A DNA stretch of 63,539 nucleotides, filler included, from Folioceros fuciformis (lineage: Eukaryota): NCBI GenBank assembly GCA_049999805.1. It is 13 parts of 13 records of this genome, joined end to end, with 100 filler letters (N's around TTAATTAATTAA, not from the genome) between each part and the next. Parts side by side here need not be neighbours in the genome. Positions count along the whole stretch, not along the records: positions 1 to 25,898 come from JBNGIO010004480.1; 12 more parts are not named here. The stretch is one strand, 5' to 3'. Below, piece by piece: positions 1-35,579 of the stretch (within the stretch, counting starts at the first letter, position 1; the number at the start of each line of letters is the position of its first letter). The position numbers were made by a program, and so were the translations under genes. The notes under the pieces were generated by a model. That model saw only the letters and a program-made list of their open reading frames with translations. It was not told the origin of the DNA and did no database searches.

Positions 1-2
1 AC

Positions 3-551
3 CAAAAACCATTAGGGTTGATGAGTATGCTAATTAATATGTTTTCTTGTGAGGGGGACTGGGTGGTTGATGCATGCGCTGGCTCAGGATATCTTCTCCA
101 AAGTGCATTTCAACATGGAAGGCATGCGGTGGCTATCGATGTGGATGTCAGGTGCACTTCATATATTATGCAGCGGATTATCGGGCTAGGGTCTTTGCCT
201 GACGTAGATGAGGAGATTACGACAGAGTTTTTTATGCGAGGCCCGTCAAAGTTTTGGGCGAAGAAAGTGTGCGGTGATGGGACCGTGGACCGCAAACTGA
301 TGGTGTTCAGTATGTTGGGCAAGAAAGGAGAGGTCATATCCCAGATTGATAATAGGCCTGCGGAAGACCTTTATGCCATCACTGTCTGGGATGAGAATTA
401 TACTTTGCCGCCCCAAACTACAGAGGACCCCAACTTCTCGGTGCTACGAGTTGGTGCCAATGACTATGGCGATATAGATGCACTACGGCTGAGAGATTTA
501 GATGTAGTTGTGGACTCCGAAGCCAACCAGGACGACCCTGTTTTTGTTTGA
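3..551 (+). CDS. C-terminal part of a prokaryote-type beta-class (permuted) amino-DNA methyltransferase (N6_N4_Mtase-like), 5'-truncated by the window edge
   Basis: The frame is open from base 3: QKPLGLMSMLINMFSCEGDWVVDACAGSGYLLQSAFQHGRHAVAIDVDVRCTSYIMQRI. This follows the beta-class consensus (HPT)QKPxxLxxxLIxxxSxxGDxVLDPFxGSGTTxxAAxxxGRxxIGIExxxxYxxxxxxRI. About 120 aa of unrecognised tail follow. No intron is visible. The catalytic [DS]PPY motif would lie upstream, outside the window. Confidence 0.75.
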   Translation, partial: QKPLGLMSMLINMFSCEGDWVVDACAGSGYLLQSAFQHGRHAVAIDVDVRCTSYIMQRIIGLGSLPDVDEEITTEFFMRGPSKFWAKKVCGDGTVDRKLMVFSMLGKKGEVISQIDNRPAEDLYAITVWDENYTLPPQTTEDPNFSVLRVGANDYGDIDALRLRDLDVVVDSEANQDDPVFV

Positions 552-864
552 CAATAAACTGGACTTAATTTGAGCTCGTTATAAACTTGAACTTGAAGTA
601 CTTAGAAAAGTTTGTGCGCCGTTTGACCGGCACACCATATGTTTAGGGTTGTGAAATATCAAGTTTTGCGTAGAAGACTCAAACTGTTTATTTCATTAAT
701 TTTGGTTTTATTGACCTTTGCAGTAAAAAGAATATTCGAATACATGTCGGTGGCGTCATTGTTTGTGGTATTAGATCAAAGTTAGATAAGGAGCGTGGAT
801 CACGACGAATGTGAAATGCGCAAAACGGGCTTTGTGCAATCCGCCCGTCTGGGTTAAACAATGT

Positions 865-1530
865 TTAAGGTCCTAGCTTGCCTGCAGCACACTTTTGTTC
901 AAGTTTAGGTCTAGTGAATAGATTCCAATCATTCAAACTACCTGCCCATTCGAAGTCATAATCCCACACTAAGCAATTTGCAATCACTGTTAATTGAAGA
1001 AGTTGAGAATAGAAGCCTTTCCTGTTATAGTAGTCACCCTTGTTTTTGCAAGGTCCAATAATGGGAATATGACTCCCGTCTACAGCTCCAATCACATACG
1101 GAATCCCTTGCAGTTCACGAAACTCAGATGCATATTCAACCATTTTGCTCTTTGTAGGCCACATGATACATGTATCATGCAACTTACAAACAAGTGCTCT
1201 ACAAAACTCCAAAGTAGCCTTATCAACTGCAGATGTGCTATGTCCATAACAGTCGGCAAGTGTATTGAGAGTGTCTCTAGTTGCTAGCCTCCTTAGTGCC
1301 ATGGCAATTCTTGCATCCACAGGAACGGCTTTTTGGAATGCGGTGTCTTTTTTGTGCAGCAAAGGGCCAATTTCAGCACACAAATACTGGAAAGTGGCTT
1401 TGCTCACTCGACAACAATGCCTAAACATTTCATATGTGTAAGACCCAAGAAGGGATTGATCTGTGAAACCATGGTTTCGTTTCACACACCATGTTGACCG
1501 TCATTTTCTTTGTCTCCCACTAGACCCTAG
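865..1530 (-). pseudogene. Truncated PIF/Harbinger DDE transposase (HARBI1/ALP1-like)
   Basis: FRHCCRVSKATFQYLC, RIAMALRRLAT, GIPYVIGAVDGSHIPI (first catalytic Asp), DYYNRKGFYS and WAGSLND are present. The ORF stops at GKLGP*, just before the expected GDxxY motif. There is also an in-frame stop upstream of W-x-VKR. Confidence 0.85.
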
Positions 1531-1699: not shown

Positions 1700-1968
1700 G
1701 GAATTTGGAGAGCCATCTCACTGTCCTCCCCTTCCATGTAGGAGCCTTCTCGATGCTCATTCTGCAGCGTNNNNNNNNNNAGGAATTTGGAGAGCCATCT
1801 CATGCTCCTCCCCTTCCATGTAGGAGCTTTCTCGACATTGTGGCCTCAACCCTAAATTGGTCTACCAGTGAGAATGATTGTGAAGGTAGCGGGGGAGGAG
1901 CTTTCTCGAAGTTGTGGCCTCAACCCTAAATTGGTCTACCAACGAGAATGATTGTGAAGGTAGCGGGG
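1700..1968. repeat. Two short direct duplications (~50-70 bp) around a 10-N gap
   Basis: GGAATTTGGAGAGCCATCTCA...CCCTTCCATGTAGGAGC occurs twice, and GTGGCCTCAACCCTAAATTGGTCTACC...GAAGGTAGCGGGG occurs twice. Confidence 0.8.
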
Positions 1969-2787
1969 ACGAGCACGGTTGAGTGGCAAGCTTGTTCACA
2001 GCTCGTAATTACGAAATTATAACAAGTTTACCATAAAGAGGTGCTGCAAAGACGAGATGTAAATACCTCCCCATGAACCGTGATGCTGGGAACAGGATGT
2101 CAGAAAATAGAGTTCGACCGGTCAAGTGTACAACCACATCTCTATAAAATCCTTGTCACCATGTGTTAGAGTCATAACTGGCCAGTGAGCAGTGCTTCGT
2201 GGTACTGACAGCCCGGTCACAGTGTAAACCGAGCCTCAGCTCTTAGCCTGCGCCTGTGCTTGACGACACATGACCCACTCACCGATTCCCATGAATTCAT
2301 CTCCCAGAAATCCGCCAGCCCCTAAACCTCACGTGAAGTTTATTACCTGCTTCTCGAGAGGCGTGCAAGATTTGTTGTTACGCACCCAGCAACAGGCTCC
2401 GCTCCACAAGCTAGTTTTCAATCCATCGTCGGTTTGTTGGCCTGGTTCGCACCAAACTCGTCCCCTACGTACATTCCTGTTGTATACATATCTACAGATC
2501 TATATGTACTTCGGTTTGAATACTTTACTTTTAGTTTTCGTATTCTCCAAGCTGTACTTCGCTGTGTTGAATACTTTAGTATTCTCCAAGCTCCACTTCT
2601 GCGGCGAAGTGCATTCATGGGCTATGGAGTTTGATTGGGCCTTTGCTCTTGAGGCTCTTGGGGCCCTTGCTCTTGAGGCTCTTGGTCGATCATAAATGCA
2701 AGTGTGATCTTTACTTCCTTTAGTCTTCCCCCTCACCACGACGGTTCTCAAAGCACATACCAATAGTGATCTTAAGCATAGTCCTGA

Positions 2788-2962
2788 CTTCCACCTCATG
2801 ATCAACTATTGTTTTCACAGTCACAGCTTCCTCACTACAAGTGATCAACTATTACCTCCACTTCCACTCACTACAAGTGATCAACTATTATCTCCACAAA
2901 CACAGCTTCCACTCACTGTAGGTGATCAACTATGATCTCCACAATCATAGCTTTTACTCACT
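2788..2962. repeat. Subterminal tandem repeat (~35-45 bp unit, ~4 copies) inside the MULE
   Basis: CTTCCACTCACTACAAGTGATCAACTATTATCTCCACAA-like units recur. Confidence 0.75.
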
Positions 2963-3432
2963 AGACCGCTTCTGGAATTCTCTGTCTCACAATTAAGCAT
3001 GCTCAGCTCCATGGCCTACAACCTGCTATGCAAAAGTTCTCAGTCTCTTCTATGGCGAACACTTCCAAGCCTTACTTAAGGACTGGCCAACAATTTCTTA
3101 AGCAATATTTCTCCCAAAATGCCTTTCCTTCTTGTTCGAATTGTCTACTCCAATTTTACCTCTTGCTTAGAGTACTTCCCTCTAAATGCTAATGCCCAAT
3201 TCAAGTTCTCTTTACAAAGCAAACCTAAGGAAGGATGCTGCAAGTTTTCAAAACCCAAGATATGTTCATGGGTGCATATTGGTGAGAAGCCCATTTGAAG
3301 TAGATGTGAAGAAAAGATACTCGTATTGGACAAGAATGGTCAGCAAAAAATACTGCAAGTGTATCAAACCTATTGCTCCATGAAATTGAAAATTGGACTT
3401 CCCAAAGCAATGCAGTCATTGTAGAAACGGCA

Positions 3433-3590
3433 CACTTGAGATCGGGGTTGCTAAAGACCCTTGAACTTGGAGATGGGGTTGTTGAAGACCTGTGAACTTG
3501 AGATCGGAGTTGCTGAAGACCCTTGAATTGAGATCAGGGTTGCTGAATACCCTTGAACTTGTGATGGGGTCGCTGAACACCCTTGAGATC
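3433..3590. repeat. Subterminal tandem repeat (~29-30 bp unit, ~5 copies) inside the MULE
   Basis: CTTGAGATCGGGGTTGCTGAAGACCCTTGAA-like units recur. Confidence 0.8.
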
Positions 3591-4351
3591 CATAACACTC
3601 ATAAGGAAGACCTACTGTAAAGGCCCCTATTCCTCGCATGTAACGAAAAATCACGCTTGCGTTTACGATCTACCAACTGAAAAACAAAAGCCCATTCAAA
3701 CTCTATAGCCCGCGAATGCACTTCTCGGTGGAAGTGGAGCTTGGAGAATATGAAACATACGTATCTATACATATGTATACCACAGGAATGTATGTAGGGA
3801 CGAGTTTGGTGCGAACCGGGCCAACAAACCGGCGATGGATTGAAAACTAGCCGGTGGAGCGGAGCCGGTGGCCGGGCGCGTAACGACGAATCCTGCACGC
3901 CTCTCCAGAAGCCGGTAATAAACTTCGGGTGAGGTTTAGGCGCTGGGCAGAAATCCATTCATACTCTCCTCCGTGCACGCCTGAAACAAGGACAGGGAAA
4001 CTCTATGCAGTCATGCTGTGGAGAAATTTTGCGCAAAAAACAGAGCATCGTCCACAATACATAACAAAGCGAATGCTTGGGCATTAAGAATTACGTAGTA
4101 CGTATGGAGTATGAATACACCAATCCTTCCACGTTACACTCAATTGGCCTTCGGATCTGAAAAAATCCAGAGGGCGTAGGCCATCATCACCCAATCCATA
4201 ATAGAAACATCCAACAGCACAGGCCAATCGTGGCAGAAGTGACTGGCTTGACTAGCCAAATAAAAGAGCTTCCGGCAAGCACAGAAGCCTCGGTGGAGTC
4301 CATCTGCTCTTCATTAATAAGCAAGATGCACAAACGCCAAGGCTCGTATGG

Positions 4352-6910
4352 TCAAGGTCCATGGCTAGATGGCGAAAATGGGTTTAGATTGTGCAGTTGT
4401 GTTTGGATTTTCTGCAGGGGCACAAGAAGATGATGCCTTGAATGTTCTCGAGGTGTAAAATTCCCTGCCATGGCGTCCAGCTTATTGATGATCTCCGTAA
4501 AGGGAGGTCTCTCCGCAGCAGATTGTTTCCAACAACATTCAATTAGCCTGCAGTCACACAGAAGCACAAGTTACGGGATCCACCACGCACGAAAGGGGGA
4601 GAGAGGCCCGGTAGCGACAATGGACAAACATGACGACCACAGCACAGCTCGACATACTCTTTCATGTGCTCTGGGTAGTCCGCCTTGAAAGTAGGGCGTT
4701 GGCCAAATTTAGCCACAATTCTCGCTGCGTCGTAGGGGTCCACGTGTTCAAACGGAGGATGCCCTTCGAACATCTGCTCGACCAAAACCATCATCTCGGC
4801 TTACATCTCGAGAAAAGAAGTGCTGCCTTCAACCAGGGAGTGGCAACAATGCCATGGAAAATACCTCATACAGAATCATTGCAAAAGAGAACACATCCAC
4901 TTTAGAGTCATACTGTGCGTGCTCGAAGACTTCAGGGGCCATGTAACGATCTGTTTCATCATCGACACGCCATAACCATACGAAGCAAGGCGACAGTCCA
5001 CTGGCAATGCCAAATTCAATGTGTGTAGAAATGCTTACAGCTGCCTGTCTCCCCAGTTAATTTATACATGTCATGAAGAGATGTAGTCTGCACAAGCTTG
5101 CTCAGGCCAAAGTCTCCCACCTTGAGAAGATCACCATCTCCTACTAGAATGTTTCTGAACGAAGGTACGCAAAAGTAAGGCATATGCAACATTTCCCAGT
5201 ACCAGATTCCAGAAGCTCAAACCTTTAGCGACGACAAATTTTCAACAGAGGTCAACTTCTTTACTGTTGTAAAGCAATCACCTGGGCTTAAGATCCCGAT
5301 GAATGATGACACCCTTCGTCCCACTGTGCAAATAAGCAATGCCCCTGCAAACAGTTATGCGTTTGCATGTCATGCAACAAGATGTCATACAGCGAGCACT
5401 GACAGTATAACTCACAGTCCCGAATGCAGAACTGAGAGTCCATACCGAGCCATGTCAAGCGCAAAATGGATAGCATGGGATGTCTTTAGAGGATATCTCT
5501 CCTTCAGTACTCGGTGCAGATCTCCCTTGAATAAGAAGAAAACAAAAGATGGGATCTCATTTTCTGAGCTACATCAGATTCCAAGGACAATTCCAGCCTG
5601 TCACACAATGTGAAACTCAGAGTTGATAAGGACTGCTGGAGTACCCCAGAGAGATATTCAGTGACCAATAAGAGTGGCTTCTCTTTGGTGACAGCACCCA
5701 AAAACTGGACACAATTTGGATGACGAATGCGCACAAGCAAATTAACTTCGTGGCAGAAGTCCGTTCTGGTATAGCAACGGTGCTCCATAAGCAACAGTTG
5801 AAAAGCAGCCAATCCAAAGGGTGAAACACCGTATTGTGAAACAGGTATCAACCCCAAATGCTGACACTCTAATGCCACAAGGTTGCACGAATCCTCATAC
5901 TGGACCCACAAGAGCTAGAAACAAAACAGCAGGCAGGGATTAACTTCCGCTGCTTCAACTCTTCCAAATACTTGGTACAGACACCGTGGACAGGAAAAGA
6001 TGCTCACACAACCAACTCATCGTTGGACAAAGCTGGCAAGATTTTCTTTACGGCCACTGGTGTGCCCCTCCACGTTGCTTTCCTAATTTCTCCAAAAGAA
6101 CCCTGCAAACCGTATCAAACGGAGCAACCTCAAGGCACAGTCCTGCAAAGCTCTGAGTACGGCGGTCCGACCGAAGTACTAACGCACTCTAAACAACGTT
6201 CTGACCTTGCCAATGAGCTCGCTGACACTGAGGTCAATCTCTTTGGGATCGATTTCCCAGTCTGCTCGATGCGGCTTCGGAGGCACGGCCTTAATCCCCT
6301 GGTTATCAGCATACTTGCCCTTCAGCAACCACCAGGCACTCCATCAGCTGCAACAGCACGTACATAGATTGCAAACCTCTACCAATAAGCAAGACAAGCA
6401 AGTCCGATACCAGCCAACAGCGGCCACAACAACAATGCAAAGTAACATCACACTGACAATGACAGCTGCCCTACCCCAAGATCCTTCCCGCCATGTCTCT
6501 CCAAAAGTCGTCTCACGTCCTCCTTCTCATTCTCGATCGCATCATGCAATGGCTGACAAACCACGGATCAGAAACACATTCAACATCCCGGCGACCCATC
6601 AAGCTCAGGAAATGCCCCTGACCGCAGCCCACGTCAAATACCTACGTACCGAGTTCTTCCTGCGATCTAACTCGTTTACCGCAGCCCCATGCCGAAGTAG
6701 AACCTCAGCTGACCGCACATGCCCGTGCGATGCTGCCACATGCAGGGCTGTGCGGCCATCGTAGTCTTTGTCATTCACCAGCTCTTTGTTTTCGATCAGG
6801 AGCTGTTCAAGAGCACTAGTCTGATCGTGCGTTACAGCCCAGAGTAGCTTGCTCACACCCACGGAATGGGAGGCCTCTTTCGACCGCTGACCACCAACAT
6901 TTGCGCTCAT
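4352..6910 (-). CDS. VIK: Ankyrin-repeat Raf-like protein kinase (VIK/BHP, integrin-linked-kinase family), multi-exon
   Basis: Exons encode DYDGRTALHVAASHG and PLHDAIEN (ankyrin repeats), then DWEIDPKEIDLS...IGKGSFGEIRKATWRGTPVAVK, HEVNLLVRIRHPNCVQFLGAVT, HRDLKP, KVGDFGLSKL, ETGSYRYMAPE and KVDVFSFAMILYEMFEG. Introns are GT-AG. ATG at 6910, stop at 4352. Confidence 0.9.
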
Positions 6911-7363
6911 TGTGATCACCCGGTGCACCAACGACAGGTGTAGCCAAGAGCGAAACCCTGGGATCCCAGCAGCTGCTCGCACTTCCCGCAACTCTGACAC
7001 TTGTCCCGCTACTGCAAACGCCCAGCACAAGAGATACGTAGTTCCCAGCGTTTAAATACGCGAGTCCACTACGGTCCGACTGACCGAGCACACCCAATCC
7101 CCTTCAATGCGAACCGGAAGACCGCAGGACCAGGCCCACAAGATCGGATTCTCACCGTGTAATATCACACCGACGCCCAGAGGCACAGGGGCACCAGAGT
7201 GTAGCGAAGTCGGGGTTGGATTTGAGGCCTGAAATAGCCGGACAAGGAAGAACCTGGGTGTGTGGCCTTGCCTAGCTGGGAGCGAGCGTAGCAGTTTCCT
7301 ACGTTGTTCTGCTTGGCTGCACAGAGACGCGGGTTCAGGTGGGTCTTGCTGGGGTGTTTCCAG

Positions 7364-9713
7364 ATGGCAGCAACATTCCGGCGCACCACCTCGGCTTGCA
7401 GGTTTGTTGGGATTCTGCCGATTGCTGCTGCCCAGGGTGGGGACTCGCCCGGATTTGCTCACGGTGCTGCGTCGCACGGCTGGTTGTGTGTGAACCAGTC
7501 ATGGCCGAGATGCATCTCTGTTCAAGCCTTCCCAGTCGGAAGTTGATCTCTACCAGCAGAACGTGGAGGACCTGCTGGCCGATACCCCCTCGGATAATGA
7601 TGGGTCGCCGGAGAGTAGAGTCATGCTGTATCCTTGCTTCTTGCATGGCCTGCCTGGGTTCATGCTGAGACTGTGCGTGTGCAGTCTAGGCGCCTTCTTT
7701 TTTTTCCGTGGCGCACAGGTGGATGGGATTGCCTTAACACCCTTACTTCAGACGTGATCTTCTGAACATCAGCCCGGTTTTGAACGAAGCTGCCAGCGCG
7801 ATCATAGATGTAGGCCTCACAGTATGACGCCTTGCCACCTCTGCGGACCGTGGCTGTGCGTGACGAGATGTGTCTAATCTAATTCGGCTCCCAACTTCTG
7901 GCAGGATTCGTTTACAAGATGTTTCAAGTCGAATCCACCAGAACCATGGAATTGGAACGTATACCTGTTTCCTCTATGGTGTCTGGGTGTGGTTGTGAGA
8001 TATGCAGTTCTTTTCCCAATCAGGTACTTGTCCGAGTGAACCAGGCTTCTATTTGAAGCGTTGAGATGGCACTCGACAGCAGCGACTGATACCAGTCATC
8101 CTTCAGACTGTGTCTTCTTGCAGTTGGCTGGGTAATCTTCCTTGCACTCTTCACGGGTGTACATTTTGCTCTGAAGGGTCGTGACAGGCTACGGAAGAAG
8201 CTGGAGGTCAGTATGATGGCATATCGTGCAGGCTTTTATTGATTTTCCTGGAGATGATGGATTTCGAGGCTCTCCCGATGGGGTTTCGTATCTCTGAACG
8301 CTGCTTTTGTTCTAGTGCATACAGAGAGGTTTAGTAGAGTTCATGTGCAGCGTTTTCGTTGCGTCATGGACTGGGGTGATTAGATACCATGGCCCACGAC
8401 CAAGCCGGCGAGCAAAGCAGGTGCAAATATTTGTTGAGTTAGTGTGATGAAGGACCCTAGACTAGTATGATCACCGTATATTTCTTGTTCTAACGGCTGT
8501 CAAATGAATATTGCGTGAAGGCAGGTGTTTGTGGCGAACCACACGTCCATGATTGACTTCATAGTTCTGGAGCAGATCACTGCATTTGCAGTTATCATGC
8601 AAAAGCATCCTGGCTGGGTTGGTAAGCAGCTGGTCGTTGGAAAGTTAAATGCACTCGACAGGGTGGGATCGGTTCACATGTCCATTCTTGACTATTACCG
8701 CAGGTTTGTTGCAAACCACGGTGCTCGAAAGCTTAGGATGCATATGGTTCAACAGGACTGAGTCCAAGGATCGATTGATAGTCGCTCGGAAGTAAGAGTA
8801 GGACATTGTGGGATCTGTTGCCCTTCTCATGTGTAGGAGGTTTACTTATGATCTTGATGGTGTTCTATCATTCTTGCAGACTGAGGTCCCACGTAGAAGA
8901 CCCGGAAAGTAATCCTCTGCTCATCTTTCCAGAAGGGACCTGTGTTAACAACGAGTACACAGTGATGTTCAAAAAGGTAGGGCACGGGCATGTACACGAT
9001 AACCATGACTTGTTCATTCATCACCCACCGTTCCCCTGTTCATGAGGTCATGTTGATGATTTGCAGCTAACTGACTCGGCCTTGTGAATCAGGGCGCGTT
9101 TGAGCTTGACTGCACTGTGTGCCCCATAGCAATCAAGTACAACAAGATCTTTGTGGATGCGTTTTGGAACAGCAAGAAGTAAGGAAAAGCGCTAGGATTT
9201 CCCTGCATGTCTAATGGGTGCGGTTGAAGTCTGTTCGATGTCCAACGAATCCTTCTTGCCTGATTTGCAGACAATCTTTCACCATGTACCTACTACGGTT
9301 GATGACATCATGGGCTGTAGTTTGTGATGTGTGGTACCTTGAACCACAAACTTTGCGACCCGGAGAATCAGCTATTGATTTTGCAGAAAGGTGGAGCGTC
9401 TGGTTTACTTGCTGCTGGCTAGGTGCATTTTTTCCTTGATCCTAACGAAGTCGGTTCCGTACAGAGTGCGTGATCTGATAGCCAAGAGAGCGGGAGTGAA
9501 AAAGGTGCCTTGGGATGGCTACTTGAAATACTACCGACCAAGTCCCAAACTCACAGAAAAGAAGTACGAGTTGTCTGGTTTGCATCCCTTGCTTATGATT
9601 GATTATGTCTGCTACCCCTGTCGTAACTGACACTTCTGTTCACGGCCCTTTGCAGGCAACTGAAATTCTCTGAGGCTGTGCTCAGACGATTAACGACAAA
9701 TGACAAGTCCTAG
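7364..9713 (+). CDS. GPAT9: Glycerol-3-phosphate acyltransferase 9, multi-exon
   Basis: Spliced exons give MAATFRRTTSAC..SQSEVDL, LRDLLNISPVLNEAASAIID, DSFTRCFKSNPPEPWNWNVYLFPLW, VANHTSMIDF (HxxxxD), NPLLIFPEGTCVNNEY, IKYNKIFVDAFWNSK and KVPWDGYLKYYRPSP. Stop TAG at 9711-9713. Confidence 0.95.
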
Positions 9714-9915
9714 ACTCGGTGTTCCTTGCAGACCTTTACCAGCTACAATTTTAGACTCCCAAGCTTTCCCAGGTGACAATACTGCTGATAATGCGATATC
9801 TCCGCTGCCGATTTCTGACTGTTGATTCTGTTCCTTTTCTGTGGGAATCAACATTGTAAGATAAAAGTTCAGGAAAAGGTTTCGTGCCTGCCTGGTTGAT
9901 CTCTGTCTTGGGCGG

Positions 9916-10057
9916 TCTGTTGCTAAGAGTTGATTTTTCCTCTGCTCGCACGGCATCTCTGTTGCTAGGAGTTGATTTTTCCTCTGCTCGCACGGCATCT
10001 NNNNNNNNNNCATCTCTGTTGCTAGGAGTTGATTTTTCCTCTGCTCGCACGGCATCT
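9916..10057. repeat. ~42-bp tandem repeat (at least 3 copies, with a gap) downstream of GPAT9
   Basis: TCTGTTGCTAGGAGTTGATTTTTCCTCTGCTCGCACGGCATC is repeated. Confidence 0.85.
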
Positions 10058-10673
10058 GGGTTCCCTACGTTTCGCACACGGGAACAGTATACAGCGACAT
10101 GCTTGCGTGGTGGAATACTCCATGAACCAAACACTAACATTCCGTAACGAAAGTTATGTCTCATGGTGTCCTAGCGTCTTTCTTGCAGTGGACTCCGCTG
10201 CCTTCCCATCCGCTGTCGAGGATGGTGCTGAAGAGTGGCCACATCCTGGCGCTAACAGGAACATCCAAGGAAGGATTGTGGTGTCAAAAATGGTCATCGC
10301 GGAATGAGCATGAGCTCGATGAAGCGTTCAAGAACCAGAAAAACAAAACTTGGTTTCAAAGTGCTCGCATATCATCGGCGCCGAGTAGTATCGCGAAAGT
10401 CACAAAAAATTCGCGACGTTGGGAATTGGGAACTCTGCCATCGGCATCCACGACCACTCCCGCCCTGTCCCTGTGGAAGCCCGTGACAGACGTGCGGAGT
10501 GATGAATGAGTTCCCTACATCCCAGATCCATCGGTGAGTGAGTGTTCTGCTCTGGCTCTCTACTCGTATAGTAAGCAAGGAAGGAAGACCATCTTCTTAC
10601 ATCAATGCCGCTGGCCCTGTGTTGATGAAAAAAAGAAAAGAATAGTTAAGATGCCTACCTCTTGTCGTAGAAA

Positions 10674-13600
10674 TCAAGCCGTCACCACCTCATCCACAAG
10701 TTCGGGTTCTTCGACCTCCGGTGGCGTCTCGTCCATGTCCATCTGGCCACACACTTCTACTTCTAGCTCCTCCTCTTCTTCCTCCTCCTCCTCATCGTCA
10801 TCAGAGGTGTCATCCCCGTTCTTCTTGCGTTTCTTCCTACCTCGACGCTCGTCCCAGGAGTTTTGTGAGGAACCTCGAATGCCGTTGGTCTCCAGCTTCA
10901 CAAACCCTCGTGAATTCTTGAACAGGTACGGGGTCTGGAAGGCGAATATGGACATGTTGGTGCACTCGAACGACATGTCCGTGAACCTGCAGGCAATGTC
11001 AGAACAGGACAGCAAACGTCAGCCTGATCTCATCGCAACTCTCATTCACAGGAACCAATCTGCGGACAAGGACCTGAAGGTGTTGAGACAATCCGTTTCT
11101 TGCAGCACACGGCAGAAGCAACGGTACCCCTCCTTGTCCGGCTTTGCCGCTGCATCTGGACGTGCCTTGGTGAACTCACTCTCCAGTATGTACTGAACAT
11201 GATGCCATTGGTGAGGCACAAGGCCACATGATGCTTTCCTACCGGTGTATTACCACACGCGTACTTACCACAAAATAATGATTCCTCGCAGCAGGGCAGT
11301 GAATAGCCCAGATCTCGTCTTTCCCTGGATATATAAAATAACCTTCGCCTACCTTGTAGCAGGAATTGACCCTGAGCACAGCGTACTTCAATGAGACGGG
11401 ATGGAACATCATGGTACCCGCAGACGATGGATTCACGGCAGTTACACCTTCAGACGTGGAGCAGCACCAAAAATAGCCTTTCTCAAACAGTACAGGTCCA
11501 AGGCCCTACAAAGCCCAAAGCAGATTGGAGGGGAAGAGCTGTCATAAACCTGTGGGAAAAGGCTACCCAGCAGTCTTGTCTTTCTACTTCGGTGTGGCAG
11601 TCGTACAGCCCAGTACCCCTATTTGGACTCCACTGATCAGCCTCTCCCCTCATGTAAGCGGGTGCCAACTCCAAGAAACGTCTGAAGAATCCAAGGGGCA
11701 CCTGCAGCTTGAGCATCAAAGAGTACTGGGTAGCGTCGGCATTCGATTCATACACCTTTCTGTGAATGAAACTCACACAACGATTTCCAGCTTCGTGTCT
11801 TCCCCTTGGGAGAACCGACCACCAGTTCTTGACACAATTTCCGCATACCAGTTCGGTCTCTTGCGTGAGTTGTACAATGCCCAGAGCTGCAACACCCAAA
11901 ACACCATGGATTGCTGAAATATGCCAACACAGAGACTAGGAAAGAAAGCTAATACTGTGCGTTGCTGGCATCTCATGACACCAGAATACTTCTACTCTGC
12001 AACAAGCGGGTCAAGGGCTTATACCTCCCCTTCATTCATAACAGATGATTCTTCCTCACTGATTGCCTTTGGTAAACTGGCAGATGAGGACTGAGGAACT
12101 AATGCTTCGTCGACCAGAGAGTGCAGCAGGTAGGCAATCACAGGAACCTGCCCAGAACAACGCCACTGGTTGAGTTGGTGCTGACCCCTAATTGGTGCTG
12201 CCACAGTCATACTAAAAGCACCGGCCTACCGAGAATGAGTTTCCAAGCAAACTCCATCGAATCCTGTGCGACTCCTTGATTGTTGCTCCTTTCCTTCCTC
12301 TCCTGCCAATACTGTCTATGAGGACCACAACCTTGCCAGCGAGCAACAGGAACAACGATAAGAGCTTAACTATGTACACGATGCTTGACAAGGATGGGGT
12401 GCGAGAAGATTGAAGTCAGCATCGCAGTGTCCAGCACTTCCAAATGCAGAGGGACAGAATGATTTCTCACCCTCCTCCTAAAGATGACTTGTACTTGATG
12501 TTGGTGTACCCAGCCGGATAACCCATAAGCTTCTCCAGCTCGGTTGTCGTGATGTAACGCAACGTTTTGGTCTCATTGTCGATCACTGCTCGCAGCTGCG
12601 CTTTCGTTCCTGCAGTATAGTTTGCAGCCAGGATACACTGGAAGCGCCAAAGGTAAAAACATTAATCCTCTGGTAAAACAGTGACCCCGTAAGATTAGTG
12701 CAAATCAAACACCAGCATCAATGTGCAAGCTAATCTCAGAATAGGATTACCCCTGCTTTTAATTCAAGAGCGGTGGCTTTCTCAAGGATGCTTTGCAATG
12801 ATGTAGAATAGTGGTTTCTCAGATTCGGCATCCGATAAGGGTGCCCAAAATTTGTCCAGTACAAACGCCTCCGTTTGTTGGGAGTGAGTTCTTGGGAATC
12901 AATCTCTATGGGGAGACAACTTAAGCAATTCGAAATCTCATCCCTATCAACCCAAAACATCGAAGCAACATTTTCGACAAGAAACCTGTCAAGACCATAG
13001 CAGTCATAAGTACAGATGACAATAGAGATGTTGAAGGTACAAATCTACCTTCTCAAAGTCCATATCCACTAAAGGCAATCATGATGGTAAGTACTGCGAG
13101 GGAAAACCCCCACGAGCAAAGCCTGTCTTGTATTTAGCAACAGAGATCATGGATGTAAGATGCAACATGAGGGCATACATAAAAAGATGGGAGTACCATC
13201 TTGGTGAGAAAAGCTCAATGATTCGGAGCATCTCAAAAAATAGTCGACTTCTGCTGCCATGTAGCCTAAGGAATGCAACAAATATACAGCGACAAAATGA
13301 GCAAGTGTTCACCACGGAGGCTTCCCCCAAATCCAAAAACACTTGGGACGATGCAAGACGGTGAGCGGTTGTGAGAGGAGCCCAGCATCTGACTTCGTTC
13401 CAGGGCTTCTCTAAGGGAGGATTTCAAATACCACTGACCCAATCTTTTTTCCCATTGCGCTGAGGTCTTGACATGGAAAGCCACCCACAACCAAATCCAC
13501 TTTCTCCGTAATAGCATCTTTCGTTATTTCAGTTACATCTCCTATATGCTGGACGTTGGGATACCTGGCCTTCAAGAGCTGAAGAGCATAATGATTCTGG

Positions 13601-14173
13601 AATGATCAAAACCAAAGCCCATGTGATCATGGTTGAAGCAAGGCATCACCTGGGCTCAACTTCTGCGGGTTATGCTTTCCGACACGCATACAAAGAGACA
13701 CACAAAGACTCAAGGGGGGATGCCGAGCTCAGCCTCCAGTCTTGCCCTTGTCCCTACAAGGCCCTGTTGCAGTACCTAGCAGCAAAGAACAGTAGTTGCA
13801 TTAAACTGGATTTTTTGATGCCAGAGCAGCGTACTCACGATTTCAGCGCTATATCCCTTGTACGGGATGCCAAGATGGCTCAGAGCAGCCCACACCCCAC
13901 CAATGCCGTCAAAGAGGCTAAGGACTACCAGTGGGGGACCCTGCCATAGCCCAGGGTCAAGCTTCAAAGACTTGAGCCAACTCTCAGCACTGCTGGGGTC
14001 CTCAGCTGCACTGGTGAGCCGCAACACCTGCATAGCCGCTCACCAGGCTCAATACACCCTACTGCTGCCCCTCCCTGCTCCCATGCAAACCTCCAGCTCC
14101 GTACCTCCTTGTGCAAGAACTGCCGCAGCCGCTCCTCCATGCCACATTCCAGGCGGGCTAGCGCTTCCAGCAT
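10674..14173 (-). CDS. DNMT3: Plant DNMT3-type C5-cytosine DNA methyltransferase with C-terminal DUF3444 domain and acidic tail
   Basis: Motifs appear in non-permuted order: I VVLSLFDGIGG, II SAEINHYA, III IGDV, IV LVVGGFPCQDLS, VI FLVENV, VIII RRRLYWTN, IX RYITTTELEKLMGYPAGYT, X RWSLLGNSFSVPVIAYLL. These are followed by DUF3444-like AFSHR...YFIYPGKDEIWAIH and a poly-E tail. Splice phases are consistent across the MTase exons I checked. The start codon (14173) is inferred. Confidence 0.9.
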
Positions 14174-14889
14174 GGAGCCAGCTGTCCAGGCCCGATAGGT
14201 CCGCAGCAAGAAGAGAAGAAAACGAACCCCGACGCTGCAGCACAGCGAGACCGCTAGCAGCCGGAGCGAGAACCCGGCTACATGCGCCAACAAAAAGCCT
14301 TGTCGCCGACAGAACTGGCTCCTCGGACAGAAATGGAAGGCGCCTGTACCTACCATGTAATTGCTTTCACACGGCAGTCAAAAGTGGCGAACGTGGACGA
14401 GCAGCAAAGGACTAGCCGGCTCCGTGCGGACGGAGACGGAATCCGATTCCCAGTCTCTTCTCGCCTCCATCTGTGACGACGTGGAAACATGGCAACGTGG
14501 CCCAGAATTTCGTCTCCCCGCTTCCCAGTGGGCCCCTGTTGGCGCCCCCCACAGCCTGCGTCACCGTATGCGCAGCGACCAAGATACTTCCTGCGCACAC
14601 AATGCGCTTGCATGCCTGTAAGTATCTTGATTCTTCCTCCGCGCGCCCAAGTTTCCCGTCAATTCCCTGCTTTCAGCGACGCCTGCTCCTTCCCCCGTCT
14701 GCCCGCCCTGCTTTCCGCTCGCTGCTTCTAGGTACCCGAGGGTGTCTTCCACTCTAATCCAGTGTTGGGCACCTGTCCAGAGATCTCCTCCTCCGTCTGA
14801 GGGAGGCGTAATTTTGCAGCCCGTCTCTCGAATCCGGGCGAGAATTTGCTTTCTTTCTGGCGACGACTGCCGCCTGCTTCCGTCCGGGG

Positions 14890-16458
14890 ATGGCAGCCGC
14901 GTGGGACACTCTGCTCAGACCGACAGCGCTGCAGGGAGCCGCCTTTTGCCATCAGGAGGGCCGGTCCCGAGTGTGCGAAGCTCGGGTGAGGAGGTGCGCT
15001 GCCGCTGATTCCAGCTTCTGTGCTATCCGGCGTGGAGGATTTGCGAAGCACAGCCAGCAGCAGCAGCTCTGTCGGTGTGGTAGCGGTAGCTTTTTCCGCA
15101 AGGGAGTAGAGCAGAAGACGAGAATTCAGGCAGCAGGCAGACGAGGGGGAGGAGGGTCTGCGGAGGACGAGGATACAGGAAGGAACACCGATGGCGGGTC
15201 CCCGGAGAGCAGGCCGCCGGGGGAGGACCCAATTGTTGATCAGGCTCTGAATCTGGACGGGAAAATTCCTCCGACATCAGACGGATTTTTGAAGACGGTC
15301 TCCTCCCGGGCTTACGACATGCGACGGCAGCTCCAGCAGAACATGGACGCCAGTAGCTATGATGGTACTGTTTGATTCCGATTCTCGATCTGATTTGGGT
15401 ACGTGCATCATTGGCTTTCACGCTCTAGGAATTGCCCCAGGTCGTCCTTTTGCTTTGCAACAGGCATCCTGGTAATCATAGCATGCTGCGAACGTTCTTG
15501 GAACACCAAGAGAGGAGTGCTGTGCACATACAGAGACGCTAGACTGTCTGTCAAGATGTGAATTTGAGTCTTCCACCACCAATTTTGATGTGCCCCTGTT
15601 TCCACGCACCGGCATGCAGTGTTGGAGGCTAATCCGTGGAGGGACTCCTCGAAGCCAGTATACGTGCTTGCGAAAGAGGAGGACGAGCTTCTCACCATGC
15701 GGACGAGGAGGGTGCGAAGGTGTTCACCGAGTCCCTTTCACTCACCCAAACCTTGCACTTTCTTTCCATATCCAAGTAGTCCATCATTGCACCATCCATG
15801 CCCATCCGGTTAGGGCAGACGGTGCTGCTCTGCTCATGGTGCACTAACCGAGATCGTTTCTCATGAAAGCCAGTGAGGTCGAGAGGGAGCTGGGGCTCCT
15901 TTTCCCTAAACGAGGCAGCAGGCGAGGAAACTCCAAAAGACCAACCGCCACCACGTACGAGAACGTGTCGTCGGCTATGCCTACCACCACCGACAACCGG
16001 TTTCGTATGTCGGTGGAGGACGTCCGTGAGGGAGTTCTGGTAATCTTGGTGTACTCCAAATCCACTCACCAACTCAAACCCTCCTTCAACCAACCTTCCT
16101 TCTCCCCACAGTTCTCACACCAGACTGGACACACCACTGCAGGTTTTCGAGGACGAGGAAGAAGCGACCCGCTACTGCAGCCTGCTTGACGGCCAGGGAA
16201 AGAGCTGCATGGGCGTGGCGGAGTTGGATGCATCTGATGTAAGCAGAGATTCTGTGAGCGTCTGCTTTGCCCTTACTCCTGTAACCAGCCACCTACTCGT
16301 TTGCTGATTCCTCCATGGGCTCCGCTCTTCTGCAGGTGTTCGCCATGTGTCAAAAGACTCAGGCATTGGCCGTGGTGTTCCGTCGAGGGCAAACTCCTCC
16401 ACAACCTGACCGCCTCCAACTCAACCTCAAGGCCAGAAAGCGGTCTTTGGAGGACTGA
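14890..16458 (+). CDS. Conserved plastid-targeted protein, DUF3110-like, 5 exons
   Basis: Transit-peptide-like N-terminus, then exons LKTVSSRAYDMRRQL..., VLEANPWRDSSKPVYVLAK, RMSVEDVREGVL|VFEDEEEATRYCSLL..GVAELDASD|VFAMCQKTQALAVVFRRGQTPPQP. TGA at 16456-16458. The family assignment comes from motif recognition only. Confidence 0.7.
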
Positions 16459-17325
16459 CATGCCCTTGCCCTGGTCTGCATTCCCCGCTCCCCCTGCCCT
16501 GCCCCTACCCCTGCCCTCCACGACCAGGTACGTGGAACCTCGGGTCCTCTTCGCACCTGTTGTCGCTACATTGGTAGCCACTTGTACATAATTTGGACGT
16601 CGTCTGATTCATCGAACGTAGTTTGTGTGTGAGGGACTTCCTACGACCACGCCAACGTTCTCTCTATTGCTACGCTAGGTGTAAGAACTAGATTCAATTT
16701 CTGTATTGGAAATTTATCTTCATCTTAAAGGGGTAATAAGGTGAAACCATAAGGGAAACAGCTGGAGATTTGTCTCGCCGTTGTTTGATTTATTTCTCAT
16801 TCACTGAACTGTGAGAGAGGAGGTCATTAACTGAAGGAGGATATCTATCTTGGGGACAAGGCGCTGGTCGACTAAAGTGGTCTTGCGAACCATTAACAGA
16901 TTACGACATTAACAAGCCTTTGGTAAGCCGTACGTAGTTAGGTTTAGGATAGGCCATAATGCTTGGCCCGTTAGAAAGTTAATCTTCCTCCCTCGTTGCG
17001 AGATTTTGATGTGGTCATTCGACCAAAAGCGGCGTGGCGTGTGTCGGTGTAGCCCCATATTATTTTGTTGGAACTTGTTGAAAGCACGGAATTTAATGGA
17101 GGAAGAAGTGGGTGGAGCGTGCTTGGCGATACCAAAAGAGCCTATGAGGTCATCGAGTATTCATGTGTCGGCATTGTGGGACACAGGCTTGTGGGTGAGC
17201 GTCACGGGTCATTTGGGATGGCCATTTAACGCTCATACCCGGGAAGGTGGTGCGTGCAGAGATTCCGACGGCCACACCACACCTTCTTGTTGCTCCACTG
17301 CTATTCGCTCTGGCGAGAGCCGGGT

Positions 17326-18606
17326 ATGGAGCGTGTAATGCTCCTGTACGCGGTGAAGGGGAGCGACGATGGCGTCACCGGCAGCAGTGCGGCGAGCTCG
17401 GACGAGTGTCGCATGGATTCCGCACTTTGGGAGGGCCTGCCGGAAGACATCCGGGAGAGAGTGCTGATGAGGGTTCCGGCGCCAGCTCAATTCCGATTCC
17501 GGACGGTGTGCAAGGCCTGGCGAGCCGTGCTCTCTGCTCCACAGTTTCTCTCTCGGCAGGTGGCCAACTGTCCCCGGGACAGTGCGGCTCTCACGCCTGC
17601 CATCTGCGCCTTCACGATTCTGGATTGCCGCGGCATGCAGGGGAGGGGTCGGTGCACCGCCGCATGGTCCTCGCTCGTGTCCTCGCTCTTCTTCCAACCG
17701 GATCTTGGAGTGCTGCCTGCCAAATTCCATCGCCTCTACGTCCCGCATTGGTGCTCGGATTGTGACAAGATTGTGTCGAACCACGGCCTGCTTTGCTTCT
17801 GCCTAGGAGGGAGGAGCAGGTTCGAGCTCTGCGTCCTCAACCCCATGACCGGGAGGTGGAAGGAGCTGCCAGGGTTGAGCGTTCCGCAGCAGAGTTTCTG
17901 GAAAATGCAGGTGGAGGTGTTGGACAATTCGGACTTCCATGTGGTTGTCATCTTGTGCAGCCAGTGTCGAAGCCTGTGGACAGTTTGCGTCTTCTCGTCT
18001 CTCACGGGGATGTGGACGATCACCCGAGGACACAACGCTCCCGGAGTACTCTTCAGCAAGTGGACCAACAGCGCGCTGGTGCTGGCCGACGGGAGGCTCT
18101 ATGGATGGGATTCCAGCGGCGTGCACATGACCATTCATAGCGTGGCCACTGCCGCTCTCCTGGTCCACTGCAACAGGTCGTTTCCCGTTGCTGGGGAGCG
18201 CAACGGCTGCTGTGACCACCACGTTGTGCAGCATCGAGGTTCGGTTTACTTTGTCACAAGTGGAGACAACTTTTGTTACCGCATCTTCAAGCTGGAAGAG
18301 CGGGGCTGGACGTGGAAGCCAATCGCGGAGTTGCCAGACCAGATGCACCGCAGAATGCTGCGAGATTTCTGTGTGTCCTTGTTGAAACCACGGCATTGCA
18401 CAGTCGTTGGTGACTTTCTCTGTGTTGTGATGGGGGTAAAAGAGGGCATGGGAGACGTTCCTAGAAGGAGGAGTCGAATGCTTGCCTATCACATCGTGGA
18501 GCAGTCGTGGCATTTGTTCCTCAATGACCAGCTGCAGGACGACCATCCTTTACACAACTTTATCACTCTCCGGTTCTTCAAACCTAGATATGATCTCATC
18601 CCTTGA
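17326..18606 (+). CDS. Intronless F-box protein with beta-propeller/kelch-like C-terminus
   Basis: WEGLPEDIRERVLMRVP...FRFRTVCKAWRAVL (F-box) and SNHGLLCF..LCVLNPMTGRWKELP. The start could alternatively be the ATG at 17413. Confidence 0.9.
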   Translation: MERVMLLYAVKGSDDGVTGSSAASSDECRMDSALWEGLPEDIRERVLMRVPAPAQFRFRTVCKAWRAVLSAPQFLSRQVANCPRDSAALTPAICAFTILDCRGMQGRGRCTAAWSSLVSSLFFQPDLGVLPAKFHRLYVPHWCSDCDKIVSNHGLLCFCLGGRSRFELCVLNPMTGRWKELPGLSVPQQSFWKMQVEVLDNSDFHVVVILCSQCRSLWTVCVFSSLTGMWTITRGHNAPGVLFSKWTNSALVLADGRLYGWDSSGVHMTIHSVATAALLVHCNRSFPVAGERNGCCDHHVVQHRGSVYFVTSGDNFCYRIFKLEERGWTWKPIAELPDQMHRRMLRDFCVSLLKPRHCTVVGDFLCVVMGVKEGMGDVPRRRSRMLAYHIVEQSWHLFLNDQLQDDHPLHNFITLRFFKPRYDLIP

Positions 18607-18854
18607 TGTACTCACTGGGGTCTCACCAACTTGGGAGACGTCGGCAAAGTCTATGTTCTGCACCAAATATTCTCCATCCTCTCTGCTTGGATGCTCGTCT
18701 TGGTGCTACAGTCTGGCCAACTCTTAGCACCATGACAGACAACCAATTTGGAAGGAGGGAGAGCCAGCGCAACAATTTGACAAGGTATTCTAATCCCTTA
18801 TCCGAACATGAAATTAATCTACAATACCCAAGCAACCAAGTAAGCAGGCATGTC

Positions 18855-18975
18855 CACACACGTCCTATGCACTTACACAGGACCAGTTTCACACACGTCC
18901 CATGCAAGTACTTACACAGTGGCAGCGTGACACACGTCCTATGCACTTACAAAGGGGCAGTGTGACAAACGTCCG
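18855..18975. repeat. ~35-40 bp tandem repeat, ~3-4 copies
   Basis: CACACGTCCTATGCACTTACA..GG.CAG.GTGA units. Confidence 0.7.
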
Positions 18976-19099
18976 ATGTACCCTCGAGCCATGTGCTAAA
19001 CGTAGGTGACGTGAGAACGCAGAATGCCACTGACAAGGAAACCCACAGAAACTAACCGGAGTTAGAGTATCGAGCCAGGAACCGGTGAGCTTGTTCAGG

Positions 19100-21170
19100 A
19101 ACTTTTTCTTCTTCGTCGTCTTCGTGTTCTTCTATAATCGTACGATGTTTGTTCCCGCGAAAGGACAAGAATTGAACCAGCAGGATATCTGAAATAGAGA
19201 CCTTGCGTGATCAGCAGCTGGTCACCAGCAAAAGCTTGGGAGTGCAAATCCTGTTGCTGTTACAGGCTTGCACGGAATACCACGTCCAGGACTTGTCATT
19301 TGCCTACTTCAAGTCTGGGCACTGCATCACACAATTTCTGCTGACCCAAAAGTCAATTTCCACATCAGTAAGCAGTCACAGTCCTAAACCAAACACCTCG
19401 TACTTCTCTCTGTTTTTTTGAGTTTGGACTTGGCCGGTAGTATTTCAAATGACCATCCTAAGGAACCTTTTCCAGCTCTCTGAGGTATCCGATCACGCAC
19501 GCTGTTTGAAGACACCTGGTAGGGATCGACAAGAAATGCACCTGGGCAGCAGCAAGCACCTTTCCGCAAAATCAATAACTGATTCACGAGGTCGCAAAGG
19601 TTGAGGTTCAAGGTAACACACATCACAAATTACAGCCCATGATGCCATCATCACGGGTAGACCCATAGTGAAAGATTGTCTGCAAGACCAGCCAAAAGAT
19701 TTCGTTACACATTGAAGAGCAATCAAGTGCTTCCCACTCGATGTGCAGGGATATCCTGGCCTGATGACTTACTTCTTGCTGATGCAAAACGATTCTACAA
19801 AGACCTTGTTGCACTTGAGTGGCACTCTGAGGTATGCATCCTGTACAGTTGTGCTCAAATGCATCCTGATTCAGAAGTCCCTTGTCAGTCTGCTGCAATG
19901 CATTTTGACCCTTATGCCAGAGATTTCTCATCAGGGGGAATGGCTGGCCAATACCCAAGAAACAAGTCATCATGATCGGGTAAACACATGCCTGTACCGT
20001 ACCTTTTTCGCCATCACTGTGTCGTTGCGGATGAGACAGATGTCACTTTCGGGGGGATCAGCAAAGGATTGCTTCCAGCATCTTCTACTTACATCCTCAG
20101 TCTGGAAGAATAAGAGACCACAATCAGAACAGAAGGCAAGCGTACTGTATATGGATTGGCAAACAACCGATCCCTTTGATCATGTTCAGTTGAACGATAT
20201 GCAACCTAAACTTTCGATAACCATGGTTTGGAGCAGACCTGCCGTGAGAATCAAGAACGTACAGGATGCCTTTGCATAATGAATCTGCTGGGGACATTGA
20301 AGCCAATTACGGATGTGTGGTTTGCCACAGACCCCTGCCTACACGCAATATTCGATTGAGCATGTCAGAGTGGAATGACTACACGGAGTTGAACAGAACG
20401 CTAACGATACCAGTGTCCTTAGTCACATCCTTAGTCACAGTCCTTGCGAGGCTCATTTGAGCTCCATGAGAAATTATGATTTCTCAAGAAACTCGTCAAA
20501 GCCCTGCAAGATTGGGCCATCATCAAACTGACCTCCACTTCTACTGCAGCCTGTTGATGACCCTTCAGAGTGAAACCTACAACCATGAAAAGCACAAGGA
20601 GGATTACCCCAGCCAACTGCAAGCAGACACAGTCTGGAGACAGTCAGGGATCAGTAGCAGCCAGCAAGTTCCATCTCTAAACTCCAACTAGAAGCCTGGC
20701 AGATAAAAGAAAATTCTCGTGACTAAATCCTTTCAGAAATTGCACCAAGTTGGCCACTTCTCTTCTCGTTTCAGATCACTAGTTGACTAACTACTGGTCG
20801 TGGGATAACATGGACGCATTCAGTCTGAGAGCCCAGACAATGTAAGCAAGAAGCAAGGATACAGCATGCCTTTGCTCTCTGGCGACCAACCATTTTCCGA
20901 CGGGGAATCGGCCAGCAGATCCTCCACTCTACCTGCGGAGATCGACTTCCGACTGGAAAGTCTGACACATAGAGGCATCTCGGCCTCTCTAACTCAAACA
21001 ACCACCCGTGCAACGCAGCACCCTGAGCAAATCCTGACTGCCTCTCACGTCCTGGACTCGAGCAGCAGCAGACAACAAGATTTGCAAAACACCTGGAAAC
21101 GAAGCTGGTGCTCCAGAAGGCTGCTGCCATCTGAAGGCACCCCGTCAAGGCCCTCCTGAACCTTGGGCTA
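19100..21170 (-). pseudogene. GPAT9: Inverted, intron-retaining GPAT9 pseudogene
   Basis: The minus strand aligns to the gene at 7364-9713 from 5' UTR through introns to 3' UTR (CLQMAAAF vs CFQMAATF; SFTMGLPVMMASWAVICDVCYLEPQPLRPRESVIDFAER). Catalytic NHTSMID has become NHTSVIG, followed by a deletion and frameshift (~20270-20330). Confidence 0.9.
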
Positions 21171-21179
21171 TGCCCCCGC

Positions 21180-35518: not shown

Positions 35519-35579
35519 CCTTGCCTTGCCTTGCCTTGCCTTGCCTTGCCTTGCCTTGCCTTGCCTTGCCTTGCCTTGC
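35519..35579. repeat. (CCTTG)n microsatellite
   Basis: About 12 perfect CCTTG units at the scaffold start. Confidence 0.95.

Follow-up and report, generated by a model that had tools for sequence, protein, structure and literature searches.

A probable methylase-like accessory-gene relic in a multi-copy, presumably mobile repeat of Folioceros fuciformis

We suggest that an open reading frame (ORF) at positions 3–551 of the DNA shown above, a stretch of 63,539 nucleotides from Folioceros fuciformis (assembly GCA_049999805.1) referred to here as the window, is the relic of a methylase-like accessory gene of a mobile element, lying within a plant repeat, and we regard this reading as fairly probable. 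The frame would represent the rear, S-adenosylmethionine (SAM)-binding half of a methyltransferase-like gene on a multi-copy, presumably mobile plant repeat. The evidence comes from family membership, the fold of a relative, the multi-copy status of the DNA, a junction at 865/866 and the pattern of substitutions among copies.

The methyltransferase-like ORF and its clade

The ORF and its two parts are as follows.

3–551, plus strand: 5'-open methyltransferase-like ORF, C-terminal half and tail, 182 codons and a stop; matched by PF01555 and by proteins P0001–P0007 at 41–55% identity.
3–218, plus strand: methyltransferase part, residues 1–72, with QKP, VVDACAGSGY and the acidic strand end AVAIDVD; drawn from alignments and from the predicted local distance difference test (pLDDT).
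189–548, plus strand: tail, SLPDVDEEIT followed by ~110 residues with no known domain; drawn from family alignments, low pLDDT and the lack of a Pfam match.

The frame is open from the window edge and closes with a stop codon at 549–551, as seen in both the ORF list and the translation (QKP..LINMFSCEGDWVVDACAGSGY..GRHAVAIDVD..QRI); with three stops in 64 codons, the chance of so long an open frame is ~1.6e-4 by simple arithmetic. The Pfam family PF01555 (N6_N4_Mtase) matches residues 1–48 (E = 9e-8, 32.8 bits against a cut-off of 26.7) and is covered at profile positions 165–212 of 221 only, which is its SAM-binding end. When the ORF was searched against PDB sequences, the best matches were TTHA0409 (2zie, E = 0.0021) and M.RsrI (1eg2, E = 0.013), and both alignments span QKP (motif X), VVDACAGSG (motif I) and AVAIDVD, where an acidic residue ends the strand next after motif I, as in beta-class enzymes. 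In a model of the ORF folded with its relatives, pLDDT was 83–97 over residues 1–70, with >90 at the SAM-binding motifs, and <50 from residue 78 on. The catalytic motif IV of this gene lies upstream of window position 1, outside view.

In the family alignments the tail motif SLPDVDEEIT corresponds to LPDE.QEIG of the relatives, and P0001 can be aligned with window positions 12–413, i.e. into the tail, which itself returned no Pfam family at E ≤ 1. No Pfam domain besides PF01555 was found in the ORF, including no chromodomain or other reader domain, and a word-index search with the ORF alone gave no match among longer or near-length proteins. These results bear out three claims of the original prediction, made from the sequence alone: a beta-class amino-methyltransferase ORF reduced to its SAM half, a tail of unknown affinity, and a catalytic motif outside the window. 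One assignment for the tail was tried and dropped. Residues 93–164 (window 279–494) weakly resemble at least eight near-identical RPGR1_C-type repeats in P0005 (2984 residues; E = 3.6e-9, eight stretches) at ~30 bits each, a single ~30-bit match multiplied by repeats; since the ORF has no RPGR1_C in Pfam and the tail has a pLDDT <50, we rejected an RPGRIP1-like domain and judge the resemblance to be a probable chance match inflated by repetition.

A search across all protein-cluster representatives gave 57 matches at E ≤ 0.001, with the repetitive proteins P0034 and P0036 set aside, and the top relatives were 41–55% identical to the ORF over residues 1–60/90. Two clade members among the 20 clusters looked up carry an organism name, namely Gb_37443 of Ginkgo biloba (670 residues) and KAL3699649.1 of Riccia sorocarpa (390 residues, on a 46.9-Mb contig), and these two proteins are alike also N-terminal to the methylase part (E = 5e-28). 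Hallmarks of the clade are a motif I of the form GDW-V/I-x-D-x-C/F-x-GSG, then LPDE.QEIG, and acidic low-complexity tails, all of them present in the ORF, whose tail is common to the eukaryote-type relatives P0001 and P0002. A SET domain was absent from the ORF and the 14 relatives scanned; no Dam-type Pfam family matched the ORF at E ≤ 1, and the relatives gave only PF02086 at E = 0.059.

In alignments, P0002, P0003 and P0006, which are the closest relatives of full length, have DLPRG opposite the bacterial DPPYG. The same position reads DIPYG in P0021, P0030, P0031, P0035 and P0059, DIPHG in the Ginkgo member (P0007) and DIPST in P0028, while SPPY occurs in none of the 10 members with the motif IV region visible and the Riccia member has no recognisable motif IV. 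The aromatic residue of (D/N/S)PP(Y/F/W) enzymes stacks on the flipped base, and because it is missing from the DLPRG branch, canonical N6-adenine or N4-cytosine methylation is doubtful there. Judging by these residues, proteins of the DLPRG type probably perform neither reaction, and DIPYG members might still be active. As a separate observation, the 374-residue DIPYG member of the P0059/P0094 cluster (JGI data, outside the window) recurs almost unchanged, as one sequence on 29 contigs, all of 1.8–3.5 kb, a pattern compatible with a transcript that is expressed, or with a repeat of young age, in some environmental eukaryote.

A quickly computed tree (89 rows, 75 shared columns) groups the ORF, on a side of 43 rows, with all DLPRG/DIPYG/DIPHG/DIPST members and with no DPPY row, at a Shimodaira–Hasegawa-like approximate likelihood ratio (SH-aLRT) support of 93, under the 95 mark; the tree speaks for this side and not for placement within it. 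Left out of it were P0005, P0034, P0036, P0016, P0058 and P0095–P0108 (repeat hits, a triple-domain protein and near-duplicates), as well as P0061, which was too short.

An AlphaFold model of P0003, built on a 32-row alignment, reached a predicted template modelling score of 0.77 with a core pLDDT >90. Foldseek returned 179 PDB matches at E ≤ 0.001 for this model, the best of them including CcrM (E = 1.7e-11), M.MboIIA, M1.HpyAVI, rotifer N4CMT, M.RsrI and TTHA0409, with M.BceJIV and M.PvuII also found. The predicted fold, that of P0003 and not of the ORF itself, is the fold of a beta-class amino-methyltransferase. A profile built from the clade only (A2) scored M1.HpyAVI at 54 bits, CcrM at 48.5, M.RsrI at 44 and N4CMT at 35, with M.PvuII not among the matches listed; in a large protein collection its matches after the clade itself were ParB_N + N6_N4_Mtase proteins (PF02195 + PF01555) in 15 of the 37 listed. 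The ancestry of the clade would lie probably in prokaryotic or phage N6-adenine enzymes and possibly in ParB-methylase fusions.

The repeat, its sister copies and the 865/866 junction

Window positions 1–860 led to three DNA runs, X1–X3, from one organism and one sample, and their contigs were mapped to 1–1770, with the longest pieces listed. Contigs on this segment number 311 in X1, 317 in X2 and 141 in X3, at 90–100% identity; by identity, those of X1 divide into 75 at ≥99%, 82 at 95–99% and 154 at 90–95%. With typical pieces of 70–300 bases, this amounts arithmetically to about two dozen distinguishable variants per position. Hundreds of contigs at 90–99% identity, as found in X1–X3, are what a dispersed multi-copy family would give, unlike a gene present once or contamination by a bacterium. 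A further run, X4, guessed to be RNA, gave four contigs, none of them on 1–865, and is uninformative on expression.

The 12 best-supported differences between the ORF and other copies comprise three synonymous and nine residue-changing ones, the latter share being about the expectation for unconstrained change. A base is missing at position 86 in one contig. One contig that reaches beyond the left edge of the window has the sequence ...ISPY-L-KP, and its frame is interrupted by a stop nine codons upstream (hand translation). Y30 of GSGY is S in most copies, with eight contigs in each of X1 and X2 and a summed depth of 118 of 142 and 149 of 179, respectively, so that the family motif is GSGS, as in P0001, and GSGY is private to the window copy. 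The oddity of motif I (DACAGSGY) had been read correctly from the start; its tyrosine is a private change of this copy, and the missing proline is no anomaly, D-x-C/F-x-G-S-G without proline being the norm in the clade. In view of this pattern, we take the copy in the window to be, most likely, a relic in decay.

Two features meet at the right-hand end of the repeat.

552–865, plus strand: non-coding 3' part of the repeat, with contig cover in all bins up to copy divergence.
865–1485, minus strand: probable truncated PIF/Harbinger-type DDE transposase ORF, 206 residues, cut at 865/866; matched just below the cut-off by DDE_Tnp_4 and weakly by Plant_tran.

The methyltransferase-like ORF ends 314 bp before the repeat boundary at 865. 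Loose contig ends behind 865 are seen in three contigs of X2, with differing sequences (agreement 0.52), and loose ends before 866, with other sequence to the left of 866, in four contigs of X1, three of X2 and one of X4. On the other side, DDE_Tnp_4 matches at E = 3.4e-5 (23.9 bits, under the cut-off of 24.8) over profile positions 1–68 of 158, the match to Plant_tran is weak (E = 0.017), and stops occur further upstream in the transposase frame. The consensus of the ends before 866 continues this frame in other copies (...KLGP-YCLVGDAGYW, hand translation), and its GDAGY stretch is one that we take to resemble the second-Asp region of PIF/Harbinger transposases. Summed depth over most of 1–865 is higher than over 886–1534. 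The truncation of the transposase coincides precisely with the end of the methylase-bearing repeat, and an insertion of this repeat into a Harbinger copy would explain the junction most simply.

Inspected by eye, the last bases before 865 show neither poly-A nor a CTRR end (Helitron), no TG..CA with a matching 5-bp duplication (long terminal repeat, LTR) and no terminus of the CACTA, hAT or PIF kind. A GC-rich stem of 6 bp is present at about 825–848. The tblastn search with 15 family proteins found no further methylase-like piece in the window.

Taken as an accessory-gene relic, the ORF would derive from a protein whose clade keeps the SAM-binding motifs, with the base-binding DPPY altered to DIPYG, to DIPHG or, in the closest relatives, to DLPRG; its mobility and the class of element we infer. 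The intact protein would bind SAM, given the conservation of motif X, motif I and the acidic residue, and would bind DNA, acting as an accessory factor of the element that ends, by this account, at 865 against the cut Harbinger transposase gene.

Several points weigh against this account. DIPY-type members keep the Asp, the second Pro and the Tyr and could be active, and DLPYG is also found in P0062 and P0063, which are labelled methylases by their source. The ParB link is weak, the Ginkgo N-terminus matching the ParB-methylase P0066 at E = 0.056 and DUF6551 at E = 0.019. No contig bridges 865/866 among the longest pieces listed, and a short-read mis-join of two repeats is possible. The repeat at 1–865, of which the window holds only the 3' 865 bases, shows no transposase, reverse transcriptase, recombinase, terminal repeat or target-site duplication of its own. 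The 12 differences are a subset (176 more occur across 1–1770) and mix copy-private mutations with family variation; the window frame is open for 182 codons, and the copy is not demonstrably dead. Finally, the red algal transposon gene PAG2, compared below, is likened to the ORF by description and not by sequence.

That the ORF is left over from viral DNA (giant virus, polinton-like or similar) which integrated and was later amplified is unlikely. By language-model features the nearest clusters are mostly viral PF01555 methylases, and many distant relatives lie on phage and IMG/VR contigs. However, the taxa concerned are phages (Uroviricota) at 27–45% identity over short stretches only, no other viral gene was seen among the ORFs scanned in 1–25898, and a transposable element would better account for the many copies and their diverse flanks. 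The 80 loci kept from 170 confirmed IMG/VR loci give this range of 27–45%; metagenome contigs contributed 23 loci (24–33%, motif X–I stretch only) and a scan of one genome per prokaryotic species 31 loci (24–32% over 60–117 residues). All of these matches are distant, and none gives a genomic context for the plant-type clade.

It is improbable, too, that the ORF and the adjacent Harbinger transposase form one element in which the ORF is a Harbinger accessory gene arranged tail to tail with the transposase. The two ORFs do converge within 314 bp on one contig, and one report mentions accessory genes in Harbinger elements (10.1101/2025.02.11.637652). Against this, the transposase domain breaks off precisely at 865/866, with profile position 68 of 158, while other copies continue; copies of the left part diverge behind 865 (agreement 0.52); and summed depth is higher over most of 1–865 than over 886–1534.

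The original prediction gave first place to a horizontally acquired, domesticated host gene, a writer of N4-methylcytosine (4mC) or N6-methyladenine (6mA) like DN4MT1 or N4CMT, and we consider this quite improbable. In its favour are the Pfam family common to N4CMT and DN4MT1, the open frame, SAM-binding residues that are kept and confidently predicted, and homologues in plants with swimming sperm, Ginkgo and Riccia. It is hard to reconcile with hundreds of diverged copies, where the count of 311, 317 and 141 contigs in X1, X2 and X3 does not describe a low-copy writer gene; with differences to sister copies that are mostly non-synonymous; with nearest relatives that carry DLPRG, and others DIPYG or DIPHG, and not SPPY/DPPY; with a clade profile nearer N6-adenine enzymes than N4CMT; and with the lack of a chromodomain or other reader domain in the ORF and of a recognisable motif IV in the Riccia member. 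The second option then offered, a transposon-borne methylase, fits the data best, the sequence being multi-copy with differing flanks.

We rate as highly improbable a non-plant source of the ORF, whether through contamination from bacteria or phages or through a chimeric contig. Such a source would suit a family found typically in prokaryotes, a very fragmented draft (50 N runs in 63.5 kb) and the lack of a contig bridging 865/866 among the longest pieces listed. On the other side stand the many diverged copies in all three DNA runs (one sample), best prokaryotic genome matches at 24–32% against 41–55% to eukaryote-type proteins, a tail common to the eukaryote-type P0001 and P0002, and the tandem repeat described below, which continues past a 10-N gap into the next contig. 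The earlier view of the ORF as plant DNA therefore holds, on its multi-copy state at 90–99% identity and on best relatives that are eukaryote-type and include Ginkgo and Riccia.

Scaffold setting and neighbouring features

Two further features define the surroundings of the accessory-gene relic.

1639–1968, no strand: tandem repeat with a unit of ~74–82 bp, spanning the 10-N gap 1771–1780.
25899–25998, no strand: first scaffold separator (44 N, TTAATTAATTAA, 44 N), which ends the scaffold bearing the ORF.

The window holds 12 such separators, each made of 44 N, the 12-mer TTAATTAATTAA and 44 N, the others starting at 29051, 35419, 43019, 45278, 50352, 54839, 56337, 57717, 59116, 60427 and 62179. 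We take TTAATTAATTAA, a six-frame stop spacer, as a sign of concatenated independent scaffolds; at least 13 separate scaffolds make up the window, one after another, and linkage across the spacers is artificial. There are 50 N runs in the 63.5 kb, and most scaffolds beyond 43 kb consist of 250–400-bp contigs joined by 100 N.

The ORF scaffold, 1–25898, is made up of contigs 1–1770, 1781–10000 and 10011–25898. The tandem-repeat copies at 1699–1753 and 1781–1835 are 93% identical, Tandem Repeats Finder detects 1822–1968, and an X1 contig with a loose end behind 1755 reads into the tandem unit found past the 1771–1780 gap; the join across that gap is plausible because the same tandem repeat lies on both sides and this contig reads into the unit. 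The gap at 10001–10010 begins exactly at window base 10001, which suggests a formatting or masking artefact, less a real assembly gap. To the right of the Harbinger fragment, inverted arms at 2315–2464 and 3797–3946 (150 nt, 89% complementarity, 1.3 kb apart), with nested inverted arms at 2575–2653 and 3677–3755, look like a foldback element or one resembling a miniature inverted-repeat transposable element (MITE).

The only recognisable gene on 1–25898 is an F-box/KIB1-4 gene at 17254–18606 on the plus strand. The ORF had been placed on the same scaffold as spliced plant genes across a single 10-N gap. The shared scaffold stands for the F-box/KIB1-4 gene, which is in fact two 10-N gaps away, but not for the genes for indole-3-glycerol phosphate synthase (IGPS; 41013–42260, minus strand) and a YTH-domain protein (38434–39883), which lie on another scaffold, 35519–43018, and are therefore uninformative on the linkage of the ORF.

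The F-box gene, with its KIB1-4 beta-propeller, is a single 450-codon frame, overlapped on the opposite strand by long ORFs at 17233–17784 and 17803–18546 that probably result from high G+C (0.55). Four further ORFs in 1781–25898, and those at 10534–11196 and 23636–24316, gave no Pfam match. The IGPS gene is complete (PF00218, E = 9e-77); it lies in one frame of 415 codons that runs without interruption and includes an N-terminal extension of ~130 residues, and such a frame is seemingly unusual for a plant IGPS gene and could reflect a retrocopy or a compact genome. The YTH-domain gene, of the N6-methyladenosine (m6A)-reader type, lies in two plus-strand frames, 38434–39228 and 39260–39883, that divide the domain at profile position 49, probably through a short intron near 39.2 kb.

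Implications and comparison with known systems

If the accessory-gene reading is true, land plants, too, have mobile elements with prokaryote-derived genes resembling DNA methyltransferases. Such genes are reported from DIRS and LTR retrotransposons of mostly unicellular eukaryotes (10.64898/2026.05.21.726589) and from the giant DNA transposons found in red algae (10.1101/2025.02.11.637652). A match to PF01555 in a plant assembly does not by itself make a candidate 4mC/6mA writer, and copy number, catalytic motif and scaffold structure should be looked at first. Enzyme and pseudo-enzyme could be told apart simply by way of the altered catalytic loop. The window copy is of low practical importance, since this copy of the repeat is partial, is probably in decay and lies on a scaffold that is unplaced; the main interest lies in the clade, with its plant-type members, re-tooled catalytic loop and possible ParB-methylase ancestry.

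A literature search within one limited library, supplements aside, found no description of such a gene in land-plant repeats. A wider proposal is possible, if doubtful: that land plants (a liverwort, Ginkgo and the organism of the window) carry an undescribed, eukaryote-specific clade of beta-class proteins derived from ParB-methylases, with the catalytic loop re-tooled (DIPY/DIPH/DLPR), which mobile elements amplified as an epigenetic accessory factor. In its biochemical activity this factor might be a 6mA writer acting on the element's own DNA, or else a SAM- and DNA-binding pseudo-enzyme interfering with host silencing; in green plants it would correspond to red algal PAG2 and to the DAM retrotransposons.

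With the beta-class N6-adenine enzymes (M1.HpyAVI, CcrM, M.RsrI, M.MboIIA and TTHA0409) the clade has in common the permuted order, catalytic half first and SAM half last, as well as motif X (QKP), motif I (D..xGSG) and the fold of the full-length relative. Unlike these enzymes, it has DLPRG, DIPYG or DIPHG for DPPY and A/L/G-C for the Pro/Phe of DPF, carries an acidic low-complexity tail with LPDE.QEIG, and is multi-copy in a eukaryote genome. Fusions of ParB_N and N6_N4_Mtase in bacteria and phages are next best to the clade profile after the clade, and one of them, P0040, has a motif I of the clade's form (GDWILD..CCGSG); the fusions keep DPPYG/DPPYN, however, are ~25–30% identical to the clade, and the ParB likeness of the Ginkgo N-terminus is non-significant.

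Like N4CMT of bdelloid rotifers and DN4MT1a/b of Marchantia, the ORF holds a PF01555 domain of prokaryotic descent within a eukaryote genome. According to two sources, these are low-copy host genes, N4CMT being an allelic pair with an added chromodomain and DN4MT1a/b a tandem pair (PMC8885841; 10.1101/2021.02.12.428880), and the catalytic motif of DN4MT1 is given as TSPPY (10.1101/2021.02.12.428880). Sperm-specific expression is a further mark of DN4MT1. The ORF, in contrast, lies in a repeat, has no reader domain and has relatives without SPPY, with DN4MT1 compared by the description in that source only; N4CMT is also weaker than the N6-adenine enzymes against the clade profile (35 vs 54 bits).

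The DAM domains of DIRS and LTR retrotransposons resemble the ORF in kind, as prokaryote-derived domains like adenine methyltransferases that eukaryotic mobile elements have amplified. As described in that report, they have an Asn-Pro-Pro pocket and align with T4 and E. coli Dam from TR-2 to CD-2, gave no activity on heterologous expression, and, in the form of DAM-LTRs, are reported absent from Streptophyta (10.64898/2026.05.21.726589). We considered and rejected a DIRS-type DAM identity for the ORF, which belongs to a different methyltransferase family, PF01555, and has no Dam-type Pfam match.

PAG2, according to its description, is an accessory gene with PF01555 and SET domains that moves among Plavaka, Mutator and Zisupton transposons of red algae, with which a ParB-like gene, PAG3, travels (10.1101/2025.02.11.637652). 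As described there, it differs from the ORF in its SET domain and in belonging to a red alga, not a green plant. The two are alike in having a beta-class methylase domain as a transposon accessory gene, and the Ginkgo member possibly adds a ParB-like N-terminus. By this analogy, PAG2 is what we regard as the nearest precedent in kind for a methylase-like accessory gene.

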